Assembly: GCA_035506675.1 (NCBI GenBank)
Contig: DATJOX010000055.1
Location: 10,951 to 74,950, forward strand
Reading direction: 5' to 3'
DNA from: Methanomassiliicoccales archaeon
GTDB lineage: Archaea > Thermoplasmatota > Thermoplasmata > Methanomassiliicoccales > UBA472
Length of the DNA stretch: 64,000 nt
A program made the position numbers and the translations under genes. Below the pieces are notes generated by a model. It saw only the letters and a program-made list of their open reading frames with translations. It was not told where the DNA came from and searched no databases. Each line of letters opens with the position of its first letter. Within the stretch, counting starts at the first letter, position 1. Below are positions 7,313 through 28,247 of the stretch, one piece after another.

Positions 7313-7503
7313 TCGTTTCGGGTCCTCTTTGTCGCAGAAAAGTCAATGAACCAGGCGATGCCAATCGCCCCTAGAAGGTGATTCGATCTACTCGGTTGAA
7401 GCGGCGGACAAGCGCAGGCATCGTATCAGCTTGATATACGTCGTCGCGAGCGCGATCGCTTTGCTGGCGATATTGCTGACGATAGTCTACGTGCGCTGAG
7501 CGC

Positions 7504-7962
7504 TCAGATGATGTGGTCCGCGGTGTCCTCGAGTATCCTGTCGCAGTAGATGCAGCGCAGGATCGGCGGGTCCCGGTTCTCCACGCTGAACTCCGGCACC
7601 ACTGGCTCGTTCAGGTTCGTGATGCAGCTGGGATTGCCACAGCGCACGATCCCCTTTACCGTGTCCGGCAGCATGACCTTGAACTTCTCGGCCACGTTGA
7701 AATCCCGAATGATGTTGATGGTCGCCTTCGGCGAAATGAGCGCGATCTTGTCGACCTCGTGCGGGTCGAGCTCGCGATCCTCCACCTTGACCACGTCCTT
7801 GAACCCGATCTTCTTCGAGGGCACGTGCATGAGAACGCTGACCGGGGACTGCACGTTCGTCCCGCCGACGCCGATGATGCGCAGCACCTTAAGCGCCATC
7901 CCCGGATTGATGTGATCGATGACCGTGCCGTTGCGGATCGGGGTGATCTTGAGGTCCCTCAT
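7504..7962 (-). CDS. pyrI: Aspartate carbamoyltransferase regulatory chain
   Basis: MRDLKITPIRNGTVIDHI N-terminus and a C-terminal Zn cluster (CGNPSCIT...RCIYCD). The start overlaps the pyrB stop by 4 nt. Confidence 0.9.
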   Translation of the reverse strand: MRDLKITPIRNGTVIDHINPGMALKVLRIIGVGGTNVQSPVSVLMHVPSKKIGFKDVVKVEDRELDPHEVDKIALISPKATINIIRDFNVAEKFKVMLPDTVKGIVRCGNPSCITNLNEPVVPEFSVENRDPPILRCIYCDRILEDTADHII

Positions 7963-8891
7963 CTCAGCTCGCCTCCGAGGACAAGGAGCAGGAGTGCCAT
8001 CCTGACCGGGACGCCGTTGAACGCCTGATCGAAGTACTTGGCGTGCGGAGTGTCGTCAACCTCGGGCGCGATCTCGTCGACTCGGGGCAGAGGGTGCATG
8101 ACGATGAGGTCCTTCTTGGCCTCGCGCAACAGAGCGTTATCGATGCGGTAACAGCCCGCGACCTTCTGGTACTCGGTCGGGTCCGGGAACCTTTCCTTCT
8201 GGATCCTGGTGACGTAGAGGACGTCGACCTCGCGGATCACTTCCTCGAGTTTCGACGTCAGCTTCGGCTTGCCGCCGAGCTTCTCGACCTGCTTGACCGT
8301 CTCGCGCGGCATCTGCAGGCTCGCCGGCGCGACGAACGTGACTTCGCCGCCGAACATCGTCAATGCTTCGGCCAGGGAGTGCACCGTCCGACCGTATTTC
8401 AGGTCCCCGACCAGGGCGACCTTCACGCCCTCGATCGTGCCCTTCGACCGGCGGATCGTGAACAGGTCGAGGAGGGTCTGGGTGGGATGCTGCCCGGCAC
8501 CGTCGCCGGCGTTGATCACGGGTTTGGATGAGAAGTGCGCGGCCAGTCTCGCGGCGCCCTCGTGCGGGTGCCTGAGGACGATGACATCGGAATAGGCCTC
8601 CACCATGCGGATTGTGTCCGCGAGCGTCTCGCCCTTCGCGATCGACATCATCGAGGGGTGCGACATCTCGAGCGTCTTGCCGCCCAGGCGCGCCATCGCG
8701 CTCTCGAACGACATCCTCGTGCGCGTCGAAGGCTCGAAGAACAGGTTGGAGAGGATCTTTCCCTCCATGGCCTTCGTGTGCTTCTCCCCTCGGGCGTAGG
8801 GGATCATCTTCTCCGCGAGGTCCATGACCTGCTCCGCGCGCTCAACCGTTAGGTCACGAATAGAAACGATGTCGGCGCCCTTGAAGTCCAT
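7959..8891 (-). CDS. pyrB: Aspartate carbamoyltransferase catalytic chain
   Basis: FFEPSTRTRMSFE and GQHPTQTLLD motifs; 310 aa. Confidence 0.95.
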   Translation of the reverse strand: MDFKGADIVSIRDLTVERAEQVMDLAEKMIPYARGEKHTKAMEGKILSNLFFEPSTRTRMSFESAMARLGGKTLEMSHPSMMSIAKGETLADTIRMVEAYSDVIVLRHPHEGAARLAAHFSSKPVINAGDGAGQHPTQTLLDLFTIRRSKGTIEGVKVALVGDLKYGRTVHSLAEALTMFGGEVTFVAPASLQMPRETVKQVEKLGGKPKLTSKLEEVIREVDVLYVTRIQKERFPDPTEYQKVAGCYRIDNALLREAKKDLIVMHPLPRVDEIAPEVDDTPHAKYFDQAFNGVPVRMALLLLVLGGELR

Positions 8892-8953
8892 GTGGTTCCC
8901 AGTCTTCCGAATACTCCATTTTCATATAAGTTAACTTCTACCGAGCCAGCCAG

Positions 8954-9334
8954 TCAGGTTCTCGTTTCGTCCGCGGACTCGAATTTGTTGAGGACTTCCT
9001 GCATCCTCGCGTACCAGTCGTTGACGCATTGTTCGAGCTTGGCGCGGAGCGCGCTGCGGTCTATGGGCTTGTACACGTGATAGTATCCGCCGCGCTCGAT
9101 GCGCCTCGTCTCGCGGTACACCATCCCGCAGGTCATGAGCTTCTGTAGCGCTCGGTAGACTGTGGAGCGGTCCTTCCCGATCTTGGCGGCTAGCTCGTCC
9201 GCCCGGACCGGTCCCGACTGGGTGAGCTGGTAGTAGACTTCGACCTCGAAGCTTCCAAGTGAGAACGCGCACTGCACCAGGTCGTGGCAGGTGTGCACTT
9301 CTCCGATCACTTTCTCGGGCAGCATGCAAAGCAC
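8954..9334 (-). CDS. TrmB/ArsR-type winged-helix transcription regulator
   Basis: EVEVYYQLTQSGPVRADELAAKIGKDRSTVYRALQKLMTCGMV is an HTH segment. The gene is divergent from the tusA-dsrE cluster. Confidence 0.6.
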   Translation of the reverse strand: MLCMLPEKVIGEVHTCHDLVQCAFSLGSFEVEVYYQLTQSGPVRADELAAKIGKDRSTVYRALQKLMTCGMVYRETRRIERGGYYHVYKPIDRSALRAKLEQCVNDWYARMQEVLNKFESADETRT

Positions 9335-9366
9335 CAGCGGACTCTCGTGGCACCGCTTCGAAAGCC

Positions 9367-9372
9367 TTATAT
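9367..9372 (-). promoter_or_regulatory. TATA box for the TrmB-like regulator
   Basis: ccTTATATcc, 33 nt upstream of GTG 9334. Confidence 0.4.
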
Positions 9373-9381
9373 CCTATCGAG

Positions 9382-9389
9382 TTTTTATA
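9382..9389 (+). promoter_or_regulatory. TATA box (TTTTTATA) for the tusA-dsrE operon
   Basis: 41 nt upstream of ATG 9430. An AAGGTGG Shine-Dalgarno-like motif sits at 9418..9424. Confidence 0.45.
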
Positions 9390-9429
9390 GTTGTCGCACA
9401 ACCGTGCAAAACCGTTCAAGGTGGCGGTC

Positions 9430-9660
9430 ATGAACAAGGATGAAAGTCTGGATTGCAAGGGCCTGATGTGCCCGATGCCGATAGTCAGGCTGGCCAAGAA
9501 GATGAAGGAGATGCAGGTCGGGAAGGTCCTCGAGCTGGTCGTAGACGATCCTGGCTCGAAGGAGGACGTCCCCGCCTGGTGCAGCCGCACCGGCAACGAG
9601 CTGGTGGAGATGAAGCAGGAAGGCAACGTCTTCTACTTCTACATCAAGAAGAAGGTGTAG
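9430..9660 (+). CDS. tusA: TusA/SirA-family sulfurtransferase
   Basis: LDCKGLMCPMPIV active-site motif. 76 aa from the internal ATG with SD; the longest ORF starts at TTG 9391. Confidence 0.8.
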   Translation: MNKDESLDCKGLMCPMPIVRLAKKMKEMQVGKVLELVVDDPGSKEDVPAWCSRTGNELVEMKQEGNVFYFYIKKKV

Positions 9661-9713
9661 AGGGGAAGGATTTCATATTGGATGGTCAAGTGAAGCTAGG
9701 GGAGTGAGGAAGT

Positions 9714-10124
9714 ATGGCGGACATGAAGAAGCTGGTCATAGTGGTCTCTGAGGGAACGTTCGACAAGGCGATGGAGTCGATGATGATCGCGAACACGGCG
9801 GCGAGCATGGGCATCGACGTGCACGTGTTCCACACGTTCTTCGGGCTGCCGCTGCTTAAGGCGAATGCGGACCCGAAGGCGCCCGGCATGATGAGATTGT
9901 TCACGGGCATGTTCAAGAACAAGATGAAGGCGGTCGGGGTGCCTGGATACTCGGAGCAGAAGAAGATGGCGATCGAGCAGGGCGTGCACATGTACGCATG
10001 CTCGACCTCGATGAGCGTCATGGGCGTAACGAAAGAGGATCTCACCCCGGGGACGGTCGTCCTGGGCGCGGCCGCGTTCCTGAACATCGCCGCGGACAGC
10101 GACATGCAGTTCTTCATCGGGTGA
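9714..10124 (+). CDS. DsrE2-type (DsrE/DsrF-like, COG2210) sulfur carrier
   Basis: KKLVIVVSEGTFDKAMESMMIANTAASMG...VHMYACSTSMSVMGV; 136 aa. Confidence 0.7.
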   Translation: MADMKKLVIVVSEGTFDKAMESMMIANTAASMGIDVHVFHTFFGLPLLKANADPKAPGMMRLFTGMFKNKMKAVGVPGYSEQKKMAIEQGVHMYACSTSMSVMGVTKEDLTPGTVVLGAAAFLNIAADSDMQFFIG

Positions 10125-10128
10125 GCGC

Positions 10129-10431
10129 GTGACCTCGGTCCTCTTCATCATGACGAAGTCGCCGCACGAATCGACCGGGCTGGAGCTCCTGCCCTCCCTC
10201 GCAGGGGAGAGCGAGCGGGGAGTGATGCTCTTCGAGGATGCAGTGTACTTTGCCGCCGACCAGAAGAGCGCGAAGCACCTGCTGGAGCACGTGCAGGAAG
10301 CGTTCGTCCTGAAGGACGATCTCGAGGCGCGCGGCTTCGGCGGATGCGCCACTGGCAAGTTCAAGGAGATCGACTACCACCAGGCGGTCGAGGTCATCAT
10401 GGAGAGGTACGACCGCACCATCACGGTCTGA
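10129..10431 (+). CDS. dsrH: DsrH/TusB-like protein
   Basis: 100 aa. LFEDAVYFA...VLKDDLEARGF...IDYHQAVEVI is collinear with TusB. GTG start 4 nt after the previous stop. Confidence 0.7.
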   Translation: MTSVLFIMTKSPHESTGLELLPSLAGESERGVMLFEDAVYFAADQKSAKHLLEHVQEAFVLKDDLEARGFGGCATGKFKEIDYHQAVEVIMERYDRTITV

Positions 10432-10440
10432 GGTGAGCGA

Positions 10441-13195: not shown

Positions 13196-13266
13196 CCCGA
13201 AAGCGTTGGTTCTGAGAGCGCGCCAAGGTCGGCGTGCAAGACTCTCGAAAAGAAGTGAAGCGAGAG

Positions 13267-13338
13267 TGCAGGTGCCGGGATTCGAACCCGGGTGTTTAGC
13301 TTGGAAGGCTAAAATCCTAACCGCTAGATTACACCTGC
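13267..13338 (-). tRNA. tRNA-Gly (anticodon UCC)
   Basis: GCAGGTGTAATCTAGCGGTTAGGATTTTAGCCTTCCAAGCTAAACACCCGGGTTCGAATCCCGGCACCTGCA folds into a full cloverleaf. The 7-bp acceptor stem is GCAGGTG/CACCTGC, the anticodon loop is CTTCCAA, and the T-loop is TTCGAAT. No CCA is encoded. Confidence 0.9.
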
Positions 13339-14409: not shown

Positions 14410-16206
14410 GTGAACATGATCGGTCGGGGCAAGACCGTATTCATCGGCACCGCCGCCGGGGAGCCGCAGGCCTTGACGCGAGCGCTCGGTGCCAACGCCA
14501 GCGAGATGGGCGATAACGAGATCATCCAGGCTCTGTCTCTCTTCCTCTCGCCGAAGCGTGAGGACATGATGCGCTACAACTTCCGGTTCAACGCGCTGTT
14601 CGTCGGGCCCGAGGTGCGCACCCTGGTCAAGGAAGGCCGAGGAGAATACACCCCCGCGCATCTGTCCGAGATGGCTACACTCCTCGAGGAAGGAAAAATC
14701 CACGTCGATTGCGCATTCATCCAGGTGACTCCTCCGGACGAGAGCGGGAACTGCTCTCTCGGAGTGAGCGTCGACATCACGAAGAGCGCGGCCAAGGCAG
14801 CGGAAATGGTGATCGCGCAGGTCAACCCCAACATGCCGCGCACGTTCGGCGATTCGCTGATGAACGTCGACGACATCGATGCGTTCGTATTCGAGGAAGA
14901 GCCACTTCTGGAATGGAAGAGGGTGGACGAGGTCGGTCCCGACCTCGAGCAGATCGGTCACCACGTCGCCGCGCTCGTCGACGATGGCGCAACCATTCAG
15001 ATCGGCTACGGAGCGATCCCCGACTCGGTGCTCAAGTTCCTCGGCGAGAAGAAGGACCTGGGAGTGCATTCAGAGATGTTCTCGGACGGCCTCATCGATC
15101 TGGTCGAGGCTGGCGTCATAACCTGCGCCAAGAAGACCAAGCATCCAGGCAAGGTGGTGGCCTCGTTCGCGCTCGGCAGCAAGCGCCTCTATGACTTCGT
15201 CGACGGCAACGAGATGTTCGAGTTCTACCCCTCACTTTACACGAACAGCCCCTGCACCATCCAGGCGAACAAGAACATGTGCGCGATCAACTCCGCCCTC
15301 GCGGTCGACCTCACCGGCCAGGTGTGTGCCGACCAGCTCGAGCATGAGTTCTACTCGGGCATCGGAGGTCTCGCGGACTTCATGCGCGGAGCCTCGATGT
15401 CACGCGGCGGCAAGGCGATCATCGCCATGCCATCGACGGCGCAGAAGGGAACGGTCTCGAGGATAGTGCCGACCCTTCCCGAGGGGAGCGCGGTGACGGT
15501 GAACCGGTGCGACGTCCACTTCGTCGTCACGGAGAACGGCATCGCCGAGCTCCGCGGCAAGAGCATCGAGCAGAGAGCGTTGGAGCTCATCGAGGTCTCG
15601 GCACCGAAGTTCAGGGCGCAGCTGCTGGAAGAGGCGAAGCGACTCGGGTACGTGAAGCAGGAGCGTTCTGCAGCGCCGTTCATGGGTCGGCAATATCCAT
15701 CCGACAAATCGGTGATCATGAAGGTGAAGGGGCAGGCGGTGCGCATCCGGCCGCTGAAGCCGACGGACGAGGAGGTGATCAAGGAGCTGTTCTACTCGCT
15801 ATCCGAGGACAGCGTCTACGAGCGTTTCCTTTCCTACGAGAAGATCATGCCGGTGCAGATCCGCAACCTGCTCGGCGTCGACTACGACACCAGGATGGCG
15901 ATGATCGCGATCATCCGCGAGGAAACGCGTTCCGAAGCGATCGGCATGTCTTCCTACGACCTCGACCCCGTCACTGGATTGGCAGAGGTCTCGTTCGCGG
16001 TCCGGGACGACTGGCAGAACCTGGGGGTAGGCACGCAGCTTTTCCGCATGCTCGTCGACTACGCTCGCGAGATAGGCATCCGAGGGTTCACGGCCGAGAC
16101 GCTCTCCACGAACATCCGCATGATCGATATCTTCCACCGCTCCGGTCTCCGCGTGGAGACGAAGTTGGTCGAGGACATGATCATGATCAAGGCGTACTTC
16201 CAGTGA
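14410..16206 (+). CDS. Fusion protein: acetyl-CoA hydrolase/transferase-family domain plus C-terminal Pat-type GNAT acetyltransferase
   Basis: The N-terminal ~430 aa are collinear with 4-hydroxybutyrate/acetyl-CoA transferases (GKTVFIG..., EFYSGIGGLADF). The C-terminal ~155 aa (15739..16203) read VRIRPLKPTDEE...DYDTRMAMIAI...FAVRDDWQNLGVGTQLFRMLVDYAREIGIRGF, typical of the Pat/YfiQ GNAT domain. Confidence 0.8.
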   Translation: MNMIGRGKTVFIGTAAGEPQALTRALGANASEMGDNEIIQALSLFLSPKREDMMRYNFRFNALFVGPEVRTLVKEGRGEYTPAHLSEMATLLEEGKIHVDCAFIQVTPPDESGNCSLGVSVDITKSAAKAAEMVIAQVNPNMPRTFGDSLMNVDDIDAFVFEEEPLLEWKRVDEVGPDLEQIGHHVAALVDDGATIQIGYGAIPDSVLKFLGEKKDLGVHSEMFSDGLIDLVEAGVITCAKKTKHPGKVVASFALGSKRLYDFVDGNEMFEFYPSLYTNSPCTIQANKNMCAINSALAVDLTGQVCADQLEHEFYSGIGGLADFMRGASMSRGGKAIIAMPSTAQKGTVSRIVPTLPEGSAVTVNRCDVHFVVTENGIAELRGKSIEQRALELIEVSAPKFRAQLLEEAKRLGYVKQERSAAPFMGRQYPSDKSVIMKVKGQAVRIRPLKPTDEEVIKELFYSLSEDSVYERFLSYEKIMPVQIRNLLGVDYDTRMAMIAIIREETRSEAIGMSSYDLDPVTGLAEVSFAVRDDWQNLGVGTQLFRMLVDYAREIGIRGFTAETLSTNIRMIDIFHRSGLRVETKLVEDMIMIKAYFQ

Positions 16207-18192
16207 TCAAGCCTTCGGTAAGACGCGGTTCTCCGCCAGCTTCTCGACGACCGTCGGATCGGCGAGCGTGGTTGTGTCTCCGATGTTGTCCATGTCGCCC
16301 GAGGCGATCTTCCTCAGGATGCGGCGCATGATCTTGCCGCTGCGCGTCTTCGGCAGTCCGGATGCGAATTGGATTGCTTCCGGCGCGGCGATCGGTCCGA
16401 CCACTGCCCGAACGTGCTTCACGAGATCCTTCTTCAGGTCCTCGGACTCTTCCACTCCAGACTTGAGAGTCACGAATGCGTAGATCGCCTCGCCCTTGAT
16501 CTCGTGCGGCATCGGCACGACCGCGGCTTCCGCGACTTTCGGGTGCGAGACCAGCGCGCTCTCGACCTCCGCAGCGCCGATGCGGTGCCCGGAAACTTTG
16601 ATGACGTCGTCCACGCGTCCCATTATCCAGATATACCCGTCCTTGTCCCTGCGCGCCCCGTCGCCCGTGAAGTAGACTTCCGGCCAGCGCGACCAATATG
16701 TCTCCTTGAAACGCTCGTGCTGCCCGTAAACGGTGCGCATGATGCCAGGCCAGGGCTTCTTGATCACGAGGTAGCCGCCCTCGTTCGGGCCAGCCTCGCT
16801 CCCGTCCTCCTTGAAGATCGCCGGCTCGATGCCGAAGAACGGCAGCGTGGCAGAACCTGGCTTCGTAGTGATGGCGCCGGGAAGGGGCGTGATCAGGATG
16901 CCTCCTGTCTCCGTTTGCCACCAGGTGTCGACTATTGGGCATCTCTCCCGTCCCACGTTCTTGTGATACCACATCCAAGCCTCCGGGTTGATCGGCTCTC
17001 CGACGGTGCCCAAGAGGCGGAGGGACGAGAGGTCGTGCATCTCCGGCCACTTCTCGCCCTCGCGCATCAGAGACCGGATGGCGGTGGGGGCGGTGTAAAA
17101 TATGTTGATCTTGAACTTCTCGACGATGTGCCAGAACCGGTCTACCTGGGGGTAGGTCGGCACGCCTTCGAACATGAGCGTCGTCGCTCCGGCCGAGAGA
17201 GGTCCGTAGACGATGTAGGAGTGCCCGGTGATCCAGCCGATGTCAGCGGTGCACCAGTAGGTGTCCTCGTCGCGGTAGTCGAAGATGTAGCGGAAGGTGG
17301 TGGTCGCGAACACCATGTACCCGCCGGTGGTGTGCAGCACGCCCTTCGGCTTGCCGGTCGAGCCCGAGGTGTAGAGGATGAAGAGCGGGTCCTCCGCATC
17401 CATGTGCTCCGCTTCGCAGACCGCCGAGGCATCCTGCATCTCCTCGTGATACCAGAAGTCGCGGCCCGCGGTCATACTGACCTCTGAGCCGGCGCGCTTG
17501 ACGACGATGACCTTCTCCACGCTCGTACCCTTTTGCAGGGCCAGGTCGGCGTGGGTCTTCAGCGAAATGTGCTTCCCGCTGCGGAAGGAGCCGTCGGCGG
17601 TGACGAGCACCTTGCACTTGGAGTCGTTGATACGGTCGCGCAACGACTCGGAGCTGAAGCCGCCGAACACGATCGAGTGCACAGCGCCGATGCGGGCGCA
17701 GGCGAGCATCGCGACCGCGAGCTCAGGGATCATGGGCAGGTAGATCGAGACACGATCTCCCTTCTGCACCCCCATTTTCTTGAGCACGTTCGCGAACTTG
17801 CAGACCTCGCGATGGAGTTGCTGGAAGGTGAGCGTGCGCACGTCCTCTTCTGGCTCACCTTGCCAGATTATAGCAGCCTTGTTCTTGTGCGGGCCGGCGA
17901 GATGCCTGTCGAGGCAGTTGTAGCTCGCGTTGAGCTTCCCCCCCTCGAACCACTTGATGATGACCTTCTGCTTGTCCCATGAGAACCCGCTCTTCCAAGT
18001 CGAGAACCAGTGAATCTCTTGCTTGGCGATCCTTTCCCAAAACGCCACTGGATCGGCGATAGACTCCCGGTAGATCTCTTCGTACTCGTCCATGCTTCTG
18101 ACCCGAGCCTTGCTGCTGAAATCCTTCGAGGGCTCGAATCTCCGGTCCTCTTCCATTACCGATTCAATGGTCTTGCCATCGGTCATCTTCAT
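16207..18192 (-). CDS. acs: AMP-forming acetyl-CoA synthetase
   Basis: [21 protein letters not shown] and a C-terminal SGKIMRR motif. I chose ATG 18192 (MKMTDGK) as the start; the longest ORF reaches 18279. Confidence 0.9.
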
Positions 18193-18367
18193 TCCCCAGC
18201 CGACTGTCCGCCGCTCGTCCAGAGTGGTCTGGTCGACGCTCTCGACCGCGGACTTCAGGAAGGTATAACCGAGATTCATATAATCGTTGCGTGAAGGCCA
18301 TCCGACAAATGACGAATGGTGCCGAAATCCCTCGATTGACTGCGAAAAGCGAAGGGGTGAGGTTCGG

Positions 18368-18423: not shown

Positions 18424-18645
18424 CTAGCTCTTGACGGAATAGTGTCCGTGGTCCTTGTGCTTGGTGAACTCCTTCTCGATGGACCTGAGTTCAGTGTAGA
18501 ACTCTTCTAGATCGTCGGCTGGCTCCCCATGGGCTTCCACTTCGTGTGCCAGTGCCTTGACCTCTCCCACTGTGTGCTTCTTCATCCAAGCTTCGACGTC
18601 GGGCTCGAATTCCAGCCCTTCGACGTAGACGTCCTCCAACTTCAT
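18424..18645 (-). CDS. Hypothetical acidic 73-aa protein
   Basis: MKLEDVYVEGLEFEPDVEAWMKKHTVGEVKALAHEVEAHGEPADDLEEFYTELRSIEKEFTKHKDHGHYSVKS. No family recognised. An alternative in-frame ATG lies at 18675. Confidence 0.4.
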   Translation of the reverse strand: MKLEDVYVEGLEFEPDVEAWMKKHTVGEVKALAHEVEAHGEPADDLEEFYTELRSIEKEFTKHKDHGHYSVKS

Positions 18646-18648
18646 CTG

Positions 18649-18692
18649 TGCATCCCATCCCGAAGACGTTTGCATCCCATCCCGAAAGTGTT
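18649..18692. repeat. Tandem 22-bp direct repeat (2 copies)
   Basis: tgcatcccatcccgaagacgtt / tgcatcccatcccgaaagtgtt, directly abutting ATG 18645 of the minus-strand gene. Confidence 0.8.
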
Positions 18693-18748
18693 TGCTTTGT
18701 GTCTTTGTCCGATGTTTGTCGGACGAAAACCAAGTATGCGTCATACAG

Positions 18749-18760
18749 TATATAATTATT
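18749..18760 (-). promoter_or_regulatory. Strong A/T block (TATATAATTATT), candidate TATA box for the small acidic-protein gene
   Basis: It is the only extended A/T run in the 18646..18887 intergenic region and lies about 105 nt upstream of ATG 18645. Confidence 0.4.
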
Positions 18761-18887
18761 TGGTCTCCGTCTTGAGTCAGCGTGTGGCCAGACCGATCCT
18801 CCAAAGCAAGCCAGTTCTGGGAAGCGCGTCAAAAGGTTTTTCTTGAGACCACGCCATTATCGCACAAAACCCAGGGGTGCACTAGGG

Positions 18888-21800
18888 ATGGGATTACTCG
18901 ATTCGATTACTGATAGGGAAACGAAGGCGCTGAAGAAGGCTCAAAAACTGATGGAGAGCACTGCGGGCGTCGTTCCCATGGAGAATCTGACCAAGGCCAG
19001 GGATCAACTGACTGAGGTCTCCGTAGATCCGAACCTCGGGCGCAAGCAAGAGTTCTCTGACGCTTACGTTCGCCTGAGCGACCTGTTCCTCCGAGGAGGC
19101 AACGCTGCAGATGCGTCCCTCGCGGCAGACAACGCGATGAGACTGGTGCCTGGAAGTGTTCCTGCTGTCATTGCACGCGCAAAAGCCTCTTCGGCCTCTG
19201 GCAAGGTGGAGGAAGCCATCAGAGCCATCGATTGGGCTCTGAACCAGAACCCGTCTGACAAGACACTCCTAGTTGAGCGCGGCTGGGTCTACGATCGTGC
19301 TGGCAACGATAGCGGCGCGGTCGACTCGTGGAAGAGGGCCGCGGAAGTGGACCCGCAAGATCTCTCCGTCCTCGACCTTCTTGCCAACAAGTCGCGCGAG
19401 AAAGAGTACTGGCTGAGGAAGAAGGGGGACGCCCAGATGGCGAAAGGTACGTACGCGGAAGCGGCGACGACCTTCGACGAAGCTCTCGCTGGCGACCCCA
19501 ACAATGTGGAGGTGCTCACTGAGAAAGGAAAGGCGCTCATGCTCGCTGGCAAGTATGACGAAGCGGGCGACGTCTACGAAACGGTGCTCCGCCTGGACTC
19601 ACGTAACTTCACAGCGCACCTGAACCGCGCAAGGGCCATGCGCCAGAAGCACGATGACCTGGCAGCGATCCAGCACTACAAGGAGGCGCTCCGCTCCAAC
19701 CCTACCGACAAATCAACATGGGTTGAGGTCGCGACGCTCCTCGAATCCTTGAGCCGGTTGGACGAGGCGCTCAAGGCCTTCGAACGCTCGCTCGAGCTGG
19801 ATCCGAAGTTCCTTCCAGGGCTGGAAGGCAAGTGTGGAGTTCTCAGGGCGCAGGAGCGCGACGAGGAGGTCGTCGTCTGCGCCAATGAGATCATCGCACT
19901 GAACAAAGACGACCTGCTCACGCACTCGATCATGATCGGCGCGCTCATGAAGCTTGGCCGATACCAGGAGGCGCTCGACGCCATCGAGGAATCGCTCAAG
20001 GTGGCGCCCAAGGACCGCGACCTATTGGAAAGGAAGCGCACGGCCCTAAAAGAACTGGGCAAGCACGAGGAAGTGATCAAGGTCGCGAACGAAACGGTCA
20101 CGCACCACGACGAGGACGCCGCGACCCTGTACGATCTCGGCATGGCGCTCGTTCTCACTGGAAAATACGAGGAGGCTTTGAAGCCCCTCGAGAAGTCCCT
20201 CAAGCTGCAACCGGACCGCGAGAGCGCGCTCGTCGCGATCAAGGAGTGCTACAAGCACGTCGGCAAGGACAAGGACGTCCTGGCGACCTGCGACCGCATA
20301 CTCGATCTCAATCCACGCAACAAGGACGCCCTCGAGGACAAGGCGATCGCCCTGGACCGCTTGGACAGGAAGGACGAGGCCATCGAGACCTATGAGAAGA
20401 TAATCGAGCTCGACCCGGAGGACGAAGAGATCCTCGCGGACCTGGCGGTCGCGTACTTCTCGAAGGAGAAGCACGAGGAAGCGCTCAGCCGCGCGCGAAT
20501 GGGGACCGAGCGGTTCCCCACCAACCCCCTGTTCTGGATGGTGAGCGGCGACGCGCTCTTCGCTTTGGGCAAGGCGGAGGAGGCGGCAGAGTCGTTCCAG
20601 AAGGCCGTGGAGCTCAAGCCCAACGATAAGCGCTTGCTGTACTCGAGGGGTCTGGCCCTGGAAGCGGCGCACCACTGCGAGGAGGCCGTCGCCTGCTACG
20701 ACGAGGCGCTCCAGATGGACTCCAACGACAAGAACCTCTGGATCTCGAAGGGGGTCGCGCTCGAATGGCTGCAGCGCTACCCCGAGGCCCTCAAGTCCTA
20801 CGATCTTGCGCTCTCCCTCGATCCCAACAACGCTTTCGCCCACGTGCGCCGCGGCCAAGTGCTGGCCAAGCTGGAGCGACACGATGAGGCGGTGGGCGCG
20901 TTCGACCGCGCGATCGATCTCGGCACAAAGGACGTCGAGGTGCTGGAGGCGAAGAAGGACTCTCTCAAGGTGCTCGGCAAGCACGACGATGTGATGAAGG
21001 TGGCCGCGCACATCACCAAGGTCGACCCGAAGAACACCAAGGCCTGGGTGGACCGCGGGCTCTCGGCGCAGAAGACGAACGATCTGGACGAGGCGGAGCG
21101 CTGCTTCGACCGGGCGCTCGAGATCGAACCCGAGAACCTGGACATCCTGGAGCGCAAGAAGTCCGTTGCGATCCAGAAGCAGGACTCGCAGAAGGTCGTG
21201 GACGTCTGCGCGAGGATCCTGCAGCTCGACCCTCGCAACAAGAACGCCCACGTGGACATGGCCCGCGCGCTTGAGGTGCTGGGCAAGCTGGAGGGGGCGG
21301 TGAGCGAGTACGACGCCGCCCTCGCGCTCGATGACCAGGACCGCACGCTCTACAATCGCAAGGGGCTCGCACTGATCTCACTTGAGCGCTACGGCGCCGC
21401 GGTGGAGGCGTTCGACGCGGCCTATCATTTGGATCCGGACGATCCACGAACACTCGACAACAAGGGCCGCGCGCTCCTTCTATTGCACTCATACCAGGAC
21501 GCCCTCGAGGTGTTCGACCAGTGTTCCAAGATCTCGCCCCAGACCGCGCAGTACCAAGCAGACCGCGGACGCGCCCTCGCCTCGCTTGAACGGTACGATG
21601 AGGCGGTGCAGGCGTTCGATTCCGCGCTCGCAATCGATCGGCGCGACGGACAGACCTGGAAGTACAAGGGCACGGCGCTGCTCAAGCTCGGGAAGTACGA
21701 GGAGTCGGTCGCTTGCTTCAACCGGGCGATCGACTACGGCGCGATAGATCAGTCGGTGTACAAGTCGAAGGCCCGGGCGCTCGAGGAGCTGGGCCGCCTG

Positions 21801-23189
21801 CCCGACTCGCTCGAGTGCTATCAGAAGGCGATGACATTCGACGACAAGGACCCCGGGCTGTGGGCAAGGATCGGCGGCGTGCAGGCCCGCCTGGGCGATG
21901 TCGAGAGCGCAGCGGGCTCGATAGACCGCTCGCTCCAGATCGACCCGCGCAACAAGAAGGGTTGGCTCGAGCGCGGGGCGCTCATGGAGAAGCTCGGCAA
22001 ATACGAAGAGGCGCTCAAATCCTACGATTCCGCGATCGGCATCGATCCCTCGGACCCGTTCGCCTGGAATGGGAAGGGGATGATACTGCTGCAGTTCGGG
22101 ACGGACGATCAGGCGGTGAGGGCGTTCGACCGCGCTCTGGAACTGAATCCATCGATGGAGTCTGCCGCCGAGGGAAAGCGCATCGTGCAGAGAAGGCTGC
22201 ACGAGCTGGAAGTCTCCGCTTGGGCGGTGAAGGTGCTGCAGGCCGAGCACCGCCGCGGCGGGGAGATGACCAAGGAGGACGCGTTCCGCGAGTGCGGCAT
22301 TCCATATTCAAGCCTTGATGAGGTCTTCGAGTACCTGGAGCAGCCGGAGCCAGTCGACGTGAACGCGTTGAGCGAAACGGAGTTCGCGGACTATGAGGAC
22401 CTGTCCCGGCGCGTGCTCCTGGCGGCCTATAGGAACCCCGGCGTGTCGCGGCACGGACTGCGCGTTTCCGACGTGCTGATGAATCTGCCGGACGAGGACG
22501 TGGCCACGGCAAAGAAGGTCTACTCGTACATCCAGCGCGTCAACGAACTGGAGTTCCGACCGGGCAAGCCCGATCCGGAGTCGGAGAAGCTGCTGCGCAA
22601 CGCGCTCTCCCTCCCGGAGGAGAAGCGCTCCGCCGTCGGGCTGATGGAGAACCTCGGCATCGGCATCTACCAGGCGCGCAAGCTCATCGGCATGATGCAG
22701 GGCTTCCGTGGCCCGGGAAGGAAGGCAGCCCCGGTGAAGGTCAAGGAGTTGCACGAAGAGGAGGAGCTGGTCGAGCTGGACCAAGGGCCGGCGGCGCCGA
22801 CCAAGGACCTGGTGGAACGCGCGACGGAGCACAAGCGCACCGAACCCAGGCCCGCTCGGAAACCGAATCCCTACGAGGCGCCGGAACTCTACGTGCGCAC
22901 CAAACAAGAGAAGCAGCCGGTGGAGAAGGATGAGAAGGAGGAAGCGCAGGAGCCCAAAGGCAGAAGGTGCCTCTTCCACGGCGGATTGGCGGTCATGAAA
23001 TGCCCCTCGTGCGGTTCAGTGCTCTGCAAGGAGTGCACGGCCTCGGGGGCGTGCCCGCGCTGCAAGACGAACCTGGGGACGGCCCCGGCGCGCAAGCAGA
23101 GGGCGGAAGTGCCAGAGGGCGAGGAAGAGGAATCGAAGGATTCGGCTGGGCCATCGGCGGAGCAGCCCCGGGACTGGAGCAGGCTCTAG
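18888..23189 (+). CDS. Giant TPR-repeat protein (about 30 TPR units) with a C-terminal cysteine-rich zinc module
   Basis: TPR units run from about aa 100 to 1080 (e.g. AxxxYxxALxxDPxN repeated). A helical region and a K/E-rich linker follow. The C-terminus is C-x2-H-x7-C-x2-C-x4-C-x2-C-x5-C-x2-C (22968..23063). I chose ATG 18888, 28 nt after a cATTATcg box; the longest ORF starts at TTG 18843. Confidence 0.85.
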   Translation: MGLLDSITDRETKALKKAQKLMESTAGVVPMENLTKARDQLTEVSVDPNLGRKQEFSDAYVRLSDLFLRGGNAADASLAADNAMRLVPGSVPAVIARAKASSASGKVEEAIRAIDWALNQNPSDKTLLVERGWVYDRAGNDSGAVDSWKRAAEVDPQDLSVLDLLANKSREKEYWLRKKGDAQMAKGTYAEAATTFDEALAGDPNNVEVLTEKGKALMLAGKYDEAGDVYETVLRLDSRNFTAHLNRARAMRQKHDDLAAIQHYKEALRSNPTDKSTWVEVATLLESLSRLDEALKAFERSLELDPKFLPGLEGKCGVLRAQERDEEVVVCANEIIALNKDDLLTHSIMIGALMKLGRYQEALDAIEESLKVAPKDRDLLERKRTALKELGKHEEVIKVANETVTHHDEDAATLYDLGMALVLTGKYEEALKPLEKSLKLQPDRESALVAIKECYKHVGKDKDVLATCDRILDLNPRNKDALEDKAIALDRLDRKDEAIETYEKIIELDPEDEEILADLAVAYFSKEKHEEALSRARMGTERFPTNPLFWMVSGDALFALGKAEEAAESFQKAVELKPNDKRLLYSRGLALEAAHHCEEAVACYDEALQMDSNDKNLWISKGVALEWLQRYPEALKSYDLALSLDPNNAFAHVRRGQVLAKLERHDEAVGAFDRAIDLGTKDVEVLEAKKDSLKVLGKHDDVMKVAAHITKVDPKNTKAWVDRGLSAQKTNDLDEAERCFDRALEIEPENLDILERKKSVAIQKQDSQKVVDVCARILQLDPRNKNAHVDMARALEVLGKLEGAVSEYDAALALDDQDRTLYNRKGLALISLERYGAAVEAFDAAYHLDPDDPRTLDNKGRALLLLHSYQDALEVFDQCSKISPQTAQYQADRGRALASLERYDEAVQAFDSALAIDRRDGQTWKYKGTALLKLGKYEESVACFNRAIDYGAIDQSVYKSKARALEELGRLPDSLECYQKAMTFDDKDPGLWARIGGVQARLGDVESAAGSIDRSLQIDPRNKKGWLERGALMEKLGKYEEALKSYDSAIGIDPSDPFAWNGKGMILLQFGTDDQAVRAFDRALELNPSMESAAEGKRIVQRRLHELEVSAWAVKVLQAEHRRGGEMTKEDAFRECGIPYSSLDEVFEYLEQPEPVDVNALSETEFADYEDLSRRVLLAAYRNPGVSRHGLRVSDVLMNLPDEDVATAKKVYSYIQRVNELEFRPGKPDPESEKLLRNALSLPEEKRSAVGLMENLGIGIYQARKLIGMMQGFRGPGRKAAPVKVKELHEEEELVELDQGPAAPTKDLVERATEHKRTEPRPARKPNPYEAPELYVRTKQEKQPVEKDEKEEAQEPKGRRCLFHGGLAVMKCPSCGSVLCKECTASGACPRCKTNLGTAPARKQRAEVPEGEEEESKDSAGPSAEQPRDWSRL

Positions 23190-24847: not shown

Positions 24848-26611
24848 TCAAGACTCGACCTTCTTCAGCTGTTTGGAGTACATCTCTTCCATTTCCTGGG
24901 TGGTCGTCGCCTCCCTCGGGCCTTTGTCCTCGCGGATACGGCCGGTGAAACGCGGGAACCGTATCGCGAGCCCGGCATCCTTCCTGATCTTCGAGTAGGC
25001 GGCGGTGTGAATCGGGCTGATCGTGATCTCCGCGCCCAGCACCTCTAGCACCAGTCCTGGCTCGAACCAAAAGTCAGGCTCCATCTTCGAAACGACCTTG
25101 TTCGGCTTCTCGGCCCTGCGGTACTTCGCGAGCATCTCGGGTAGCTTCGCGAGCGTCGCGTCGTCGAACCCGCTTCCGAGCTTGCACACGGTCTCGAAGA
25201 CATCCTTCTCCGAGTTGTAGGTGGCCATGAGCAGAGCCCCATACAGCCCGCCACGCTTCCCTCTCCCAGCCAGGGCTCCGACCGCCACCAGATCGACAGT
25301 GTCCGTCATCTCCGAACGGTATTCCTTCTTGTACTTGATCCAGAGGTAGCCGCGCGAGCCGGCCTGGTAGACGGACTCCGCCCCGACCGATTTCGCCATC
25401 AGTCCCTCGCAGCCGTCCTGCAACGCCTGCGTGAAGAACTTCTCGATCTCCGTCGGCGAATCGAGCACCCGCATCTCTGAGAAGCGCACCTCGTCAGTAA
25501 GCCCGAAGACCTCCTCCAGCGACTTCCTTCGATCTGGATATGGAGAGTTTGTCAGGTCCTCGCCGTCGCGATACAGGCAGTCGAAGAGGAACACCTTCAC
25601 TGGGTAATCCTCGATCGCTTCCTTGAGGCCGTGCTTGCGTCCTCTGCGATGCGAGACTTCTTGGAATGGCAGCATCTCGCCGGTGTTGATGTCCACCGGC
25701 ACGCACTCCCCCTCGACGATCGCGCTCTTCGCCTTGAACGCCTTCTTGAGCGCAAGCGCTACGTCTGGAAATTGGTCCGTCAAGTTCTCTAGGCGGCGGG
25801 AATAGAGGTTTGCACTTCCGTCCTTCAAGTGCGCCTGCACGCGCACGCCGTCATACTTGTACTCGAAGGCCGCCTCTCCCCCGAGCTTTTCGAGGATCTC
25901 TTCGGGCGAGGGCAAGCGCTCAGCGAGCATCGCGCGCATCGGGCTGCCCACCTCGACCTTCATGTTGCGCACCGCCTCGATGCCTTGCGTGGCCAGTATT
26001 TCGGCCACTTTGCCGAGATCCGAGGACACGTTGAAGGCGCGTTCGATCGCGTCCCGGTCCGCTTTGGTCGCGAAGGCCTGCGCGAGCGCGTCCACCATCG
26101 TCATGCTGGCGACTCCGAGACGCATGCGTCCGGTGACGATGCGGCAAATGAACTTCGCCTCGCTCGGCTCGGCGTCGTTGAGCAGGTCCGCGAGCATCCC
26201 GATCTTCGTGTCCTGCGATCCAGAACCTTCCGACTCCGCGATCTTCTCGAGGTTTTTGTAGACTCGCTGCAGCGTCAGCGGCTCGTTGAACAGAGCCCTC
26301 TGCTTCCGGGTCTGAAAGATCTGCTGCGCGACGATGCCGAGATCGCCCTCCTTCTTCCAGACCTCCTCGACCTGCGCCTCGCTCTTGCCAGACGACGTGG
26401 CGATGGTCTTGATCGCCAATCTGTCCGACATCCCCAGCTTCCGCGGATCGTAGTCTGGATACAACATTCCCTGCGTGAGGTAGACGATCCTGCTGAGCTC
26501 CTTCGCGTCGGATGACTTCAACAACTGAGCGAGGATGTCCGTCATCTCCAACCGGCCGGACACCGCCTCAAGCCTGTCGTACACCTGGACAAGGTCCCGG
26601 AAGAGCATCAT
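24848..26611 (-). CDS. lig: ATP-dependent DNA ligase
   Basis: EYKYDGVRVQAH adenylation motif and a full ligase/OB layout. I chose ATG 26611, 22 nt after the TATA box; the longest ORF (26707) would overlap the helicase gene. Confidence 0.9.
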   Translation of the reverse strand: MMLFRDLVQVYDRLEAVSGRLEMTDILAQLLKSSDAKELSRIVYLTQGMLYPDYDPRKLGMSDRLAIKTIATSSGKSEAQVEEVWKKEGDLGIVAQQIFQTRKQRALFNEPLTLQRVYKNLEKIAESEGSGSQDTKIGMLADLLNDAEPSEAKFICRIVTGRMRLGVASMTMVDALAQAFATKADRDAIERAFNVSSDLGKVAEILATQGIEAVRNMKVEVGSPMRAMLAERLPSPEEILEKLGGEAAFEYKYDGVRVQAHLKDGSANLYSRRLENLTDQFPDVALALKKAFKAKSAIVEGECVPVDINTGEMLPFQEVSHRRGRKHGLKEAIEDYPVKVFLFDCLYRDGEDLTNSPYPDRRKSLEEVFGLTDEVRFSEMRVLDSPTEIEKFFTQALQDGCEGLMAKSVGAESVYQAGSRGYLWIKYKKEYRSEMTDTVDLVAVGALAGRGKRGGLYGALLMATYNSEKDVFETVCKLGSGFDDATLAKLPEMLAKYRRAEKPNKVVSKMEPDFWFEPGLVLEVLGAEITISPIHTAAYSKIRKDAGLAIRFPRFTGRIREDKGPREATTTQEMEEMYSKQLKKVES

Positions 26612-26632
26612 GCTGGAGAGGGCACCAGGCGC

Positions 26633-26640
26633 TAATAATA
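26633..26640 (-). promoter_or_regulatory. TATA box for lig
   Basis: gcTAATAATA on the + strand (TATTATTA on the - strand), in the 40-bp gap between the helicase stop and the lig start. Confidence 0.45.
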
Positions 26641-26651
26641 GCTCTGTGAAT

Positions 26652-28247
26652 TCAGAAATCGAATAGCTGCTTCTGTCCCGGCTTGCGCTCTGCCTCGCGG
26701 CCCTCACCCTCGTCCGCGAGACGCTGCTCCAGGTTCATCGTGCGCTGCAGTTTCGCGATGCCCTTCTTCATCGCGCGCTCCTTGTTCATGCTCGCGTATA
26801 GGTACGCTTCGTCCCTCGTGCCTCTGGTGACGAGCACGACCACCCTGCCCTCGCGCTTGCGCCCGGTGCGTCCGCGCCGCTGGATCGAGCGTATCTCCGA
26901 TGCGACGGGCTCGTAGAACAGCACCAGGTCGGTGGAGGCGACATCGAGGCCCTCCTCTCCTACGCTCGTCGCCACCAGTACGTTGAACTCGCCTTCACGG
27001 AATCGCTGCAGCACCCCCACCTGCTCCTTCTGCTTCAGGCCCTTCTCCCCGCTCCGATCCGCCTGCCCGACCAGCTTCACCACCTTCGCTCCGGGCACGT
27101 TCGACAGCTTCTGCACGACCATGTCGCACGTGTCGCGATAGTGAGTGAACACCATGATCCTCGATTCAGGTCGCTCCTGCACCATGCGCGAGACGACCGT
27201 CATGACCTGCGAGATCTTAGGATGCTCGACCTTCGTCGAATGAACCAGCGAGAATGCCTGGATCCACTCCGGCGCCTGCACCATCGTGCGCGAGGCCTTG
27301 CTGCCTTCCTTGGATTCTGCTTCCTCCTGCTGCTTCTCCATGAAGCTGCGCAGCGCTGTCATGCCTTGAGTCTCAGCCAGCTCGAGAGCGTGCCCGGCCT
27401 TCATCGCCATCGCCTGGACGCTCATCGCCTGGAAGAGGTTCTTGTGCCTCTCACCGCCGTGATGCCTCGCTTGCAGCGTGCGCCCGATCTCGAGCAGATA
27501 CTTGGTGTTCGGGGGTCGGTTACGGTCCATGACCCCCAAGTGGATGAGCTGCTTGATGTACGAGTCCTCGAGAGCCTTCAGCAGGAAGATGATCCGCTTG
27601 ATCTCCGCGGGCAGCTCGACCTCCACCCAGTCGATGTCCACTTCGTGCATGTACTTCGCGACGTCCGGGTCCGATTCGGAGCGGGCCTCGATGCTTTCGA
27701 TGCCGAGGTTCGAGCAGACCTCCTTGATCTTCTCCTTGTTCGAGCCAGGGGACGCGGTCATGCCGAGCACCAGGCCGCCGTACTGCTGGTACTCCTTGCC
27801 AATCGGAACGTAGGCGTAGTCGCCGACGGCGCGATGCGCCTCGTCGAATATGATAAGGCGAACGTTCTTCAGGCTGTAGTTCTCGGAGCGCAGGTCGTTG
27901 GCGATCACTTGCGGCGTGGAGCAGATGACGTCGTTCTCGAGGAACAGGACCGCTCGCTCGTCGGGTGGCACCTCGCCGGTCATGACCGCGACCTTCCTGC
28001 CCACCAGAAGCTCGCGCATGGAGTTGGCGTGCTGCTCCACGAGGGGCTTCGTCGGAGCCAGGAAGAGCGCCTTGCCGCCAAGTTCCGTCAGAATGCTCGC
28101 GATCACGCGGAGCGCAACGATAGTCTTCCCGAGGCCAGTGGGCAGGACCAGAAGAGTGGACCTGCGTGACGCCGACTCCGCCAGGGTTCGCTGGTAGTCC
28201 CTGTCCTCGACGCTCTCCTTCTTGATCAGGGGATGGTCGACGTACAC
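26652..28247 (-). CDS. hef: Hef/Mph1/FANCM-family (COG1111) superfamily-2 helicase, helicase module only, with a C-terminal PIP-box
   Basis: LPTGLGKT, FDEAH, TASPG and QRRGRTGR motifs with an insertion domain between the RecA lobes. It ends QKQLFDF-stop. No ERCC4 nuclease or HhH2 domain is present. Confidence 0.8.
   Translation of the reverse strand: MYVDHPLIKKESVEDRDYQRTLAESASRRSTLLVLPTGLGKTIVALRVIASILTELGGKALFLAPTKPLVEQHANSMRELLVGRKVAVMTGEVPPDERAVLFLENDVICSTPQVIANDLRSENYSLKNVRLIIFDEAHRAVGDYAYVPIGKEYQQYGGLVLGMTASPGSNKEKIKEVCSNLGIESIEARSESDPDVAKYMHEVDIDWVEVELPAEIKRIIFLLKALEDSYIKQLIHLGVMDRNRPPNTKYLLEIGRTLQARHHGGERHKNLFQAMSVQAMAMKAGHALELAETQGMTALRSFMEKQQEEAESKEGSKASRTMVQAPEWIQAFSLVHSTKVEHPKISQVMTVVSRMVQERPESRIMVFTHYRDTCDMVVQKLSNVPGAKVVKLVGQADRSGEKGLKQKEQVGVLQRFREGEFNVLVATSVGEEGLDVASTDLVLFYEPVASEIRSIQRRGRTGRKREGRVVVLVTRGTRDEAYLYASMNKERAMKKGIAKLQRTMNLEQRLADEGEGREAERKPGQKQLFDF

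Follow-up and report, generated by a model that had tools for sequence, protein, structure and literature searches.

A TPR protein of Thermoplasmatota with a predicted B-box/RING-like zinc module and a conserved C-terminal peptide

In a 64,000-nucleotide stretch of genomic DNA from a Methanomassiliicoccales archaeon (assembly GCA_035506675.1, contig DATJOX010000055.1, positions 10,951 to 74,950; termed the window in the following), a single gene codes for a large tetratricopeptide repeat (TPR) protein that carries an eight-ligand zinc module and a short conserved peptide at its C-terminus (Table 1). According to ligand spacing, profile matches and structure prediction, the module is a RING/B-box-like binuclear treble clef of the cross-brace type, an assignment that is well supported but not proven. 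It is spaced like a B-box of type 2, with cysteine at all ligand positions but one, and it resides on an uncharacterised architecture found across the Thermoplasmatota; the fold class itself will not surprise specialists, and the family is conserved and clean. The most likely role of the protein is that of an assembly or docking scaffold, a proposal to which we assign about an even chance. The C-terminal peptide and a small gene in head-to-head orientation are new features that were absent from the initial annotation, which a model had made from the letters of the window.

Ligand spacing and profile matches of the zinc module

The eight ligands follow the spacing C-x2-H-x7-C-x2-C-x4-C-x2-C-x5-C-x2-C, and both the coordinates and the pattern given in the initial annotation were exact. 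The pattern occurs only once in the six-frame translation of the window, and the 32 residues of the module hold seven of the 19 cysteines of the whole protein. All eight ligand positions were retained in the first 18 homologs, with the exception of one apparently frameshifted copy (P0014); in an alignment of 44 full-length orthologs, to which the conservation values below also refer, each ligand position as well as the preceding GRR is at least 90% conserved. Conservation of the cysteines in orthologs, on which the initial annotation had made its proposal depend, is therefore observed across the Thermoplasmatota. The only substitution found at a ligand position is that of Cys by His, which argues for metal binding; the second ligand pair reads H-x-C instead of C-x2-C in some lineages.

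The ligand spacing is position-for-position identical to that of the human TRIM5 B-box2 (PDB 2YRG: C-x2-H-x7-C-x2-D-x4-C-x2-C-x5-H-x2-H). For this reason, B-box type 2 is a better description than the type 1 consensus to which the module had first been fitted, whereas the broader assignment to the RING/B-box cross-brace class was supported. An hhalign comparison with the TRIM5 B-box2 brought the first six ligands into register, at a weak E-value of 0.01. The module thus combines eight ligands of the Cys/His/Asp kind at B-box spacing with a last pair that is Cys-Cys and not His-His. The RING consensus demands a loop of at least nine residues between pairs 1 and 2 and of two to three residues between ligands 4 and 5; the corresponding loops of the archaeal module comprise 7 and 4 residues, so that it does not conform to the RING-finger pattern (C3HC4/C3H2C3).

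Against the Pfam model zf-B_box (PF00643), the window copy scored 20.1-20.2 bits (E 7e-4; profile positions 2-30 of 42), and 17 bits each were obtained with the ANCHR-like B-box and zf-C2HC5 models, both sub-threshold. Within a set of 60 diverse family copies, zf-B_box was the most-matched Pfam family at E<=0.01 (36 copies), with the ANCHR-like B-box (28 copies) and the RING model zf-C3HC4_3 (16 copies) next to it. At E<=4e-5, which was estimated to be equivalent to the Pfam gathering score of zf-B_box, this model still matched 12 of the 60 copies and RING models none. Prok-RING_4 and Prok-RING_1 were matched weakly by a few copies. A sequence-profile search of the PDB with the module returned RING domains first (MAT1, then RNF4); a profile search with the 53-residue module yielded four proteins, the query being too short for the word-indexed database.

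Predicted fold of the zinc module

The AlphaFold model of the module, built on an alignment of 60 sequences, has a core with a predicted local distance difference test score (pLDDT) of 88-89 and consists of a beta-hairpin (model residues 18-22 and 29-31) directly followed by a helix (residues 32-37). Ligands 1 and 2 are N-terminal to the hairpin, whose turn holds ligands 3 and 4; the second strand closes with ligand 5, the first turn of the helix contains ligand 6, and ligands 7 and 8 come after the helix. In PMC4506424, RING-like cross-brace domains are described with this same treble-clef layout. The predicted succession of knuckle, hairpin and helix, the latter with ligand 6 at its start, thus favors the interleaved cross-brace of the initial annotation over two separate ribbons; in such an arrangement, ligands 1, 2, 5 and 6 would bind one zinc ion and ligands 3, 4, 7 and 8 the other.

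Comparison of the model with the PDB by Foldseek gave a list of 50 top matches that were almost all RING, B-box, ZZ, MYND, HIT, FYVE, p44 or ASC-1 domains. The top RING, B-box and ZZ matches superimposed with a root mean square deviation of 2.0-2.5 Å over approximately 40 columns; the SIAH1 RING domain was matched with a TM score of 0.53 and a deviation of 2.0 Å over 42 columns (E>=0.16). Other RING domains in the list were those of PML, Bre1, IDOL, cIAP2, XIAP and Listerin, and the non-RING matches comprised the p62 ZZ domain, TFIIH p44, PML B-box1, TRIM5 B-box2, HIT, MYND and FYVE fingers, and ASC-1.

Comparison with known B-box and RING-like domains

The archaeal module and the B-box of type 2 (PF00643; TRIM5, PDB 2YRG/5K3Q) share the general spacing C-x2-H-x7-C-x2-[C/D]-x4-C-x2-C-x5-[C/H]-x2-[C/H], the succession of the first six ligand types, C-H-C-C-C-C (PMC4506424), and the predicted hairpin-plus-helix core. 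They differ in the last two ligands, which are His in the B-box and Cys in the archaeal module, and the window copy is a sub-threshold match. In contrast to TRIM proteins, the module terminates a TPR solenoid and has neither a RING nor a coiled coil beside it; the archaeal protein is therefore not a tripartite motif.

Although such modules are best known from eukaryotic TRIM/E3-type proteins, as the initial annotation had pointed out, they are not exclusive to eukaryotes. In 2008, a survey of TRIM proteins did not find B-boxes among prokaryotes (PMC2533329); an account of prokaryotic B-box and RING-like domains followed in 2011 (Burroughs, Iyer, Aravind, Mol Biosyst 7:2261, as cited in PMC4506424 and PMC11354881), and the prokaryotic B-boxes are linked there, according to the summary in PMC4506424, to folding, stability and proteolysis of membrane proteins. 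As far as these accounts go, the archaeal TPR protein differs from the prokaryotic B-boxes in that it has no membrane segment apparent to the eye and no protease neighbour. With the prokaryotic RING-like clefs (Pfam Prok-RING_1 to Prok-RING_4), as they are portrayed in these sources, it shares a predicted RING-like domain of the two-zinc type in a prokaryote, with no obvious ubiquitin system nearby.

The combination of a helical-repeat scaffold with a RING-fold domain is also known from eukaryotic complexes. CHIP/STUB1 as well as the TPR lobe of the APC/C with its RING subunit unite TPRs that clamp EEVD-COOH or IR-COOH tails with a RING-fold domain; in contrast to these systems, the archaeal protein possesses 30 TPRs instead of three and carries the peptide on the same chain as the TPRs, and it is not known to have an E2 or ubiquitin partner. 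In complexes of the HOPS/CORVET and GATOR2 type, the RING-like domain mainly joins subunits. As far as the sources describe them, Vps11/18 of HOPS/CORVET, GATOR2, alpha-COP (PMC4678705) and IFT172 (bioRxiv 10.1101/2024.11.05.620812) contain extended helical-repeat scaffolds whose C-terminus bears a small RING-like domain. The archaeal protein differs from these alpha-solenoid systems by the lack of a beta-propeller, of a membrane-coat context and of a detectable sequence relationship, so that the likeness is one of analogy only.

TPR array and helical region

The protein belongs to the TPR repeat proteins by its tandem helix-turn-helix repeats of 34 residues: the complete 1,433-residue sequence scored 383 bits with the Pfam model TPR_2 and 380 bits with TPR_1 (cut-offs approximately 27 bits). 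By framing at 34 residues, 27 units are arranged in unbroken register with zero indels (residues 173-1090) and are preceded by approximately three degenerate units, which bears out the about 30 consecutive units of the initial annotation; consensus residues are present at unit positions 4, 8, 11, 20, 24, 27 and 32. The exact register extends over 918 residues (19404..22157, + strand) despite the units being well diverged from each other. A helical region, a Lys/Glu-rich linker and the terminal module succeed the array in precisely the order first described. The ATG at 18888 is regarded as the true start, since the N-termini of the orthologs share the sequence MG[LF]LDS[LI]TDRE; G2, D5 and E11 of this motif are at least 90% conserved. 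No hydrophobic signal peptide or membrane-spanning stretch was seen in the translation, which was inspected by eye without a topology predictor; on this basis the protein is probably cytoplasmic.

The helical region is conserved, with a mean column identity of 0.68, as opposed to 0.41 in the linker behind it; G1259, A1263 and R1264 of its GIGxxxAR motif, which we liken to a helix-hairpin-helix signature, are at least 90% conserved. Profile searches gave no significant Pfam or PDB match to this region, nothing rising above noise. The linker (residues 1276-1355) has fractions of 0.20 K+R, 0.25 D+E and 0.12 P.

Table 1. Features of the TPR gene and of its upstream region (positions refer to the window)
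Feature	Position	Strand	Basis or remarks
TPR / helical / zinc-module gene	18888..23189	+	1,433 aa, frame free of stops
Conserved N-terminal motif MG[LF]LDS[LI]TDRExKAxKKA	18888..18947	+	Alignment of ortholog N-termini
TPR array, residues 71-1090, approximately 30 units	19098..22157	+	Pfam TPR families E 1e-118 to 1e-120; 34-aa framing
Candidate peptide-binding groove, C-terminal third of array, residues 683-1090	20934..22157	+	Conserved helix-A residues
Conserved helical region, residues 1091-1275, 10 helices	22158..22712	+	AlphaFold pLDDT >90
GIGxxxAR motif, residues 1257-1264 (G-I-G-I-Y-Q-A-R), helix-hairpin-helix-like	22656..22679	+	Within helical region
Lys/Glu/Pro-rich disordered linker, residues 1276-1355	22713..22952	+	pLDDT <50; composition
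Eight-ligand zinc module, C1361 H1364 C1372 C1375 C1380 C1383 C1389 C1392	22968..23063	+	Conserved GRR directly before
Acidic disordered spacer, residues 1396-1427	23073..23168	+	pLDDT <50; D+E 0.24
Extreme C-terminal peptide D-W-S-R-L-COOH	23172..23186	+	Family consensus D-[LFW]-[SNT]-R-L-COOH
Small gene, 73 aa, MKLEDVYVEGLEFEPDVEAWMKKHT...	18424..18645 (coding 18427..18645)	-	Head-to-head with TPR gene
Divergent intergenic region with AT-rich box TATATAATTATTT at 18749..18761	18646..18887		Read from sequence

C-terminal peptide and candidate binding groove

The extreme C-terminus is strongly conserved: Asp occupies position -4 in 43 of the 44 orthologs, position -3 is Leu, Phe or Trp, position -2 is Ser, Asn or Thr, position -1 is Arg in 42 orthologs, and the last residue is Leu in 43. 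An end of the type D-[LFW]-[SNT]-R-L was unique to the TPR gene among the 1,611 open reading frames (ORFs) of at least 80 codons in all fetched loci, and it is borne by no other ORF of the window.

Among known C-terminal signals, the tail -[ST]-R-L-COOH matches SRL, a variant of the PTS1 signal recognized by PEX5, and it fits the consensus [ST]-x-L-COOH of class I PDZ ligands such as CFTR (-DTRL-COOH). Archaea have no peroxisomes, and position -2 is not fixed, since related clades end with -DDEPRL or -GWRD[ST]L. By pattern alone, three other motifs were rejected: a PIP-box, for which Q-x-x-[LIM]-x-x-[FY][FY] is missing, an HbYX motif, for which the penultimate Tyr is missing, and a MIM, for which the spacing L-x-x-R-L is unsuitable.

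TPR grooves are known to bind extreme C-terminal peptides by a clamp of Lys, Asn and Arg residues on helix A, e.g. EEVD on Hop and CHIP, SKL on PEX5 and the IR tail on APC3. In the C-terminal third of the archaeal array, K689, K694, K757, N823, K825, N858, R895, K925, K933, R994 and K1063 are at least 90% conserved among the 44 orthologs, all of which bear the tail, and the same helix-A positions are hydrophobic or acidic in tail-less clades; W1026 and other structural TPR residues vary less between the clades than these residues. The conservation pattern of the tail-bearing clade would fit a docking of the tail into the groove, which is suggestive only.

Distribution and variants of the family

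The closest homologs, with up to 98% identity, derive from metagenome-assembled genomes (MAGs) of Methanomassiliicoccales. A profile of the non-TPR C-terminus retrieved 178 cluster representatives among 1.84 billion proteins, and a scan of the GTDB species representatives with one motif, RRCLFHG[GN][LIV], detected the gene in 58 of them, with one locus in each. All 58 hosts are Thermoplasmatota (Methanomassiliicoccales, Thermoplasmata, and MAGs labelled 'Methanobacteriota' or 'Euryarchaeota archaeon'); their orthologous open frames comprise 1,420-1,550 codons, and the parts are arranged alike in all of them. In the source records, the family copies are named 'tetratricopeptide repeat protein' or 'hypothetical protein'.

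Several variant forms deviate from this architecture. A variant of approximately 1,230 residues from MAGs labelled Thermoplasmataceae or Candidatus Thermoplasmatota ends right after the helical region, one clade has retained the zinc module and possesses a different C-terminus, and clades that lack the module end with -DDEPRL or -GWRD[ST]L. Downstream of one representative of the latter (P0074, at locus L063, ending with -DDEPRL), the interval 7503..10437 (+ strand) holds, in the orientation of the TPR gene, an unknown gene of 181 codons and then three genes with double-zinc-ribbon domains, one of them fused to a Band_7 domain.

Convincingly independent stand-alone proteins, in which a long charged linker joins the zinc module to the tail, were also found (P0135, P0141, P0149 and P0156, with consistent short N-termini ahead of the module), and at locus L061 the module and the tail are encoded by a separate ORF at the same locus (P0118, a split gene). 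Since both kinds carry the two elements together, module and tail behave as a unit. Many other apparently small stand-alone homologs were discarded as artefacts, being fragments at contig ends (as in L058) or, as in L061, the product of a split gene. A further stand-alone protein of 266 residues (P0152) has an N-terminal zinc module, a long charged linker and the end -KKRDFDSL; its gene is located directly behind a V4R/DUF835 gene and a gene for a Ras/Arf-like small GTPase of 175 residues, all on the same strand.

Small head-to-head gene and genomic neighbourhood

Upstream of the TPR gene, the small gene encodes an acidic and probably helical protein with invariant W20, H24 and G40. Its homologs were present upstream and on the opposite strand in 40 of the 41 loci that hold at least 600 nt of upstream DNA, ranging from Methanomassiliicoccales to distant Thermoplasmata; the start codons of the gene pair are separated by 208-327 nt across the loci (243 nt in the window). 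No Pfam or PDB relative of the small protein was found. Among the 120 matches listed of its 154 homologs, lengths were approximately 60-130 residues, mostly 72-80, none had a Pfam domain, nearly all were unnamed or 'hypothetical', and the named sources were Thermoplasmata or Candidatus Thermoplasmatota. The small gene was not found upstream of three variant forms lacking the tail or the module, a small sample. The divergent intergenic region has a GC fraction of 0.53, compared with approximately 0.61 around it, and its AT-rich box may be a TATA element serving either gene or both.

Unlike the upstream small gene, the downstream neighbours change completely between Methanomassiliicoccales and distant Thermoplasmata. 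In Methanomassiliicoccales-like genomes, a convergent block of TruD, RpoL, DNA ligase and helicase genes adjoins the TPR gene; in other Thermoplasmata, convergent flavodoxin, Kbl and Tdh genes are found instead. Neither block is a likely operon partner, and the neighbourhood failed as a clue to function. In 21 loci of distant Thermoplasmata (L016-L060; e.g. L038 7252..7755, + strand), a protein of approximately 165 residues with an N-terminal zinc ribbon (MTRVC.RC...FCP.CH) is encoded downstream on the same strand, at a median distance of approximately 800 nt from the TPR gene.

Further observations concern the surroundings of the gene pair in the window. A gene for acetyl-CoA hydrolase/transferase domains fused to a C-terminal GNAT acetyltransferase (14410..16206, + strand) is convergent with an acetyl-CoA synthetase (Acs) gene (16207..18279, - strand) with zero intergenic gap; this arrangement recalls the Pat-type acetylation control of Acs. 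The Acs gene remains beside the small gene in Methanomassiliicoccaceae loci. The sole RNA gene detected in the window by ARAGORN and Rfam is a tRNA-Gly(TCC) (13266..13338, - strand). The listed ORFs of a DEAD-box/ResIII helicase (26652..28247, - strand) and of an ATP-dependent DNA ligase (24848..26707, - strand) overlap by 56 nt (26652..26707); the GTG listed as the ligase start probably lies too far upstream.

Proposed function and alternative explanations

B-boxes and many of the RING domains that terminate helical-repeat scaffolds serve for self-association or as junctions, and it is for this reason that a scaffold role is proposed. Taking the domain order, the conservation, the predicted class of the zinc module, the specificity of the tail and the conserved gene pair as observations, we infer a cytoplasmic scaffold that would be specific to Thermoplasmatota; the assembly or targeting hub suggested in the initial annotation is likewise an inferred role. 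The TPR array would provide the binding platform, and the zinc module, by analogy with B-boxes and structural RINGs, may serve as a protein-contact or self-association domain. By analogy with known TPR-peptide complexes, the carboxylate of the tail could dock into the basic TPR groove: docking into the groove of the same chain would result in autoinhibition, docking into that of another copy in a head-to-tail assembly. Alternatively, the receptor of the tail may be a different partner protein, and the stand-alone proteins with module and tail could be another source of docking tails. The small head-to-head gene may encode a partner or regulator.

Several observations weigh against this interpretation. 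The module of the window lies below the gathering threshold of the Pfam B-box model (20.1 versus 24.1 bits), and every Foldseek E-value for the module was at least 0.16 (best 0.16); non-significant Foldseek E-values are usual for domains of 40 residues. The contrast in groove conservation between tail-bearing and tail-less clades is subject to confounding by the phylogeny and by any register slips that the repeat alignment may contain. Apart from the small gene, the neighbours are lineage-variable, convergent housekeeping or metabolic genes that give no functional hint. Finally, the helical region faintly resembles helix-turn-helix and helix-hairpin-helix domains, which could point to nucleic-acid binding.

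The last point leads to an alternative that we consider rather doubtful: a nucleic-acid-binding regulator, in which DNA or RNA would be bound by the helical region, through its helix-turn-helix-like modules and the GIGxxxAR hairpin, together with the basic zinc module, and the TPRs would sense a ligand or peptide, as in large transcription regulators that contain TPRs. In profile searches, the first helical module was faintly similar to the winged-helix Z-alpha domain and to sigma-70 region 3, and Foldseek comparison of a 329-residue C-terminal model with the PDB gave nothing significant, with weak helix-turn-helix-like matches to sigma factors, DtxR/MntR and RuvA; basic residues (GRR and CPRCK) flank the module, and TruD, RpoL, DNA ligase and helicase genes adjoin in Methanomassiliicoccales. 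However, all of these similarities are non-significant (E>=0.06), the synteny with information genes is convergent and lost in other Thermoplasmata, and an array of thirty TPRs together with a conserved free C-terminal peptide is unlike known regulators.

It is unlikely that ligand pairs 1+2 and 3+4 each form a zinc ribbon or knuckle of their own, one after the other as in an ordinary double zinc ribbon, which is the least supported reading of the module. The models DZR, Zn_ribbon_1 and Zn_ribbon_3 were weakly matched by just one to three of the 60 family copies, and one homolog is named 'Zn finger protein (UPF0148 family)' in its source. Against this reading stand the spacers of 7 and 5 residues, which are very short for two-knuckle ribbons, and the predicted helix, which starts with ligand 5/6 like that of a treble clef. 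The Pfam matches are mainly to B-box and RING models, the Foldseek list consists almost entirely of cross-brace domains with few ribbons among them, and the spacing equals that of the TRIM5 B-box2.

A Pro in the last ligand pair (C-P-x-C) and a basic residue after ligand 8 are features of E2-binding RINGs, and we know of no report of E2/E3 cascades in Thermoplasmatota. That the protein is a CHIP-like E3 ligase, whose TPRs would recruit substrates or chaperones and whose RING-like module would recruit the charged carrier of a SAMP-type modifier, is unlikely: TPRs and a RING-like domain do form the layout of CHIP/STUB1, zf-C3HC4_3 matched 16 of the 60 copies, RING E3 domains head the Foldseek list, the Pro after ligand 7 is at least 90% conserved, with basic residues frequent after ligand 8, but the 7- and 4-residue loops are B-box-like and not RING-like, the central helix is short and has no conserved aromatic residue, no RING model was matched at the stricter cut-off of E<=4e-5, and within the conserved neighbourhoods no E1, E2 or ubiquitin-like gene adjoins the TPR gene in any lineage.

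Returning to the assembly or docking scaffold, a more far-reaching version of it is improbable as well: by analogy, the solenoid, the module, the free tail and the small partner could together constitute a self-assembling or client-recruiting machine, maybe ligase-like towards SAMPs. To our knowledge, no E3 is known for these ubiquitin-like proteins. If it existed, such a machine would be an archaeal counterpart of the CHIP, APC/C, HOPS and GATOR2 assemblies, operating by tail-in-groove and zinc-module contacts.

RING and B-box folds are key elements of ubiquitin signalling in eukaryotes as well as of TRIM and further RING-containing assemblies, and their prokaryotic roles are almost unexplored experimentally. 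The family offers a well-defined archaeal case with a fixed architecture that is open to tests by way of three handles, namely its zinc module, its free tail and the small conserved neighbour. Should the protein be merely a passive scaffold, the result would be a useful re-annotation; if tail-in-groove docking or self-assembly holds true, the family would provide a simple prokaryotic model of the cooperation between a TPR scaffold and a RING-like module.

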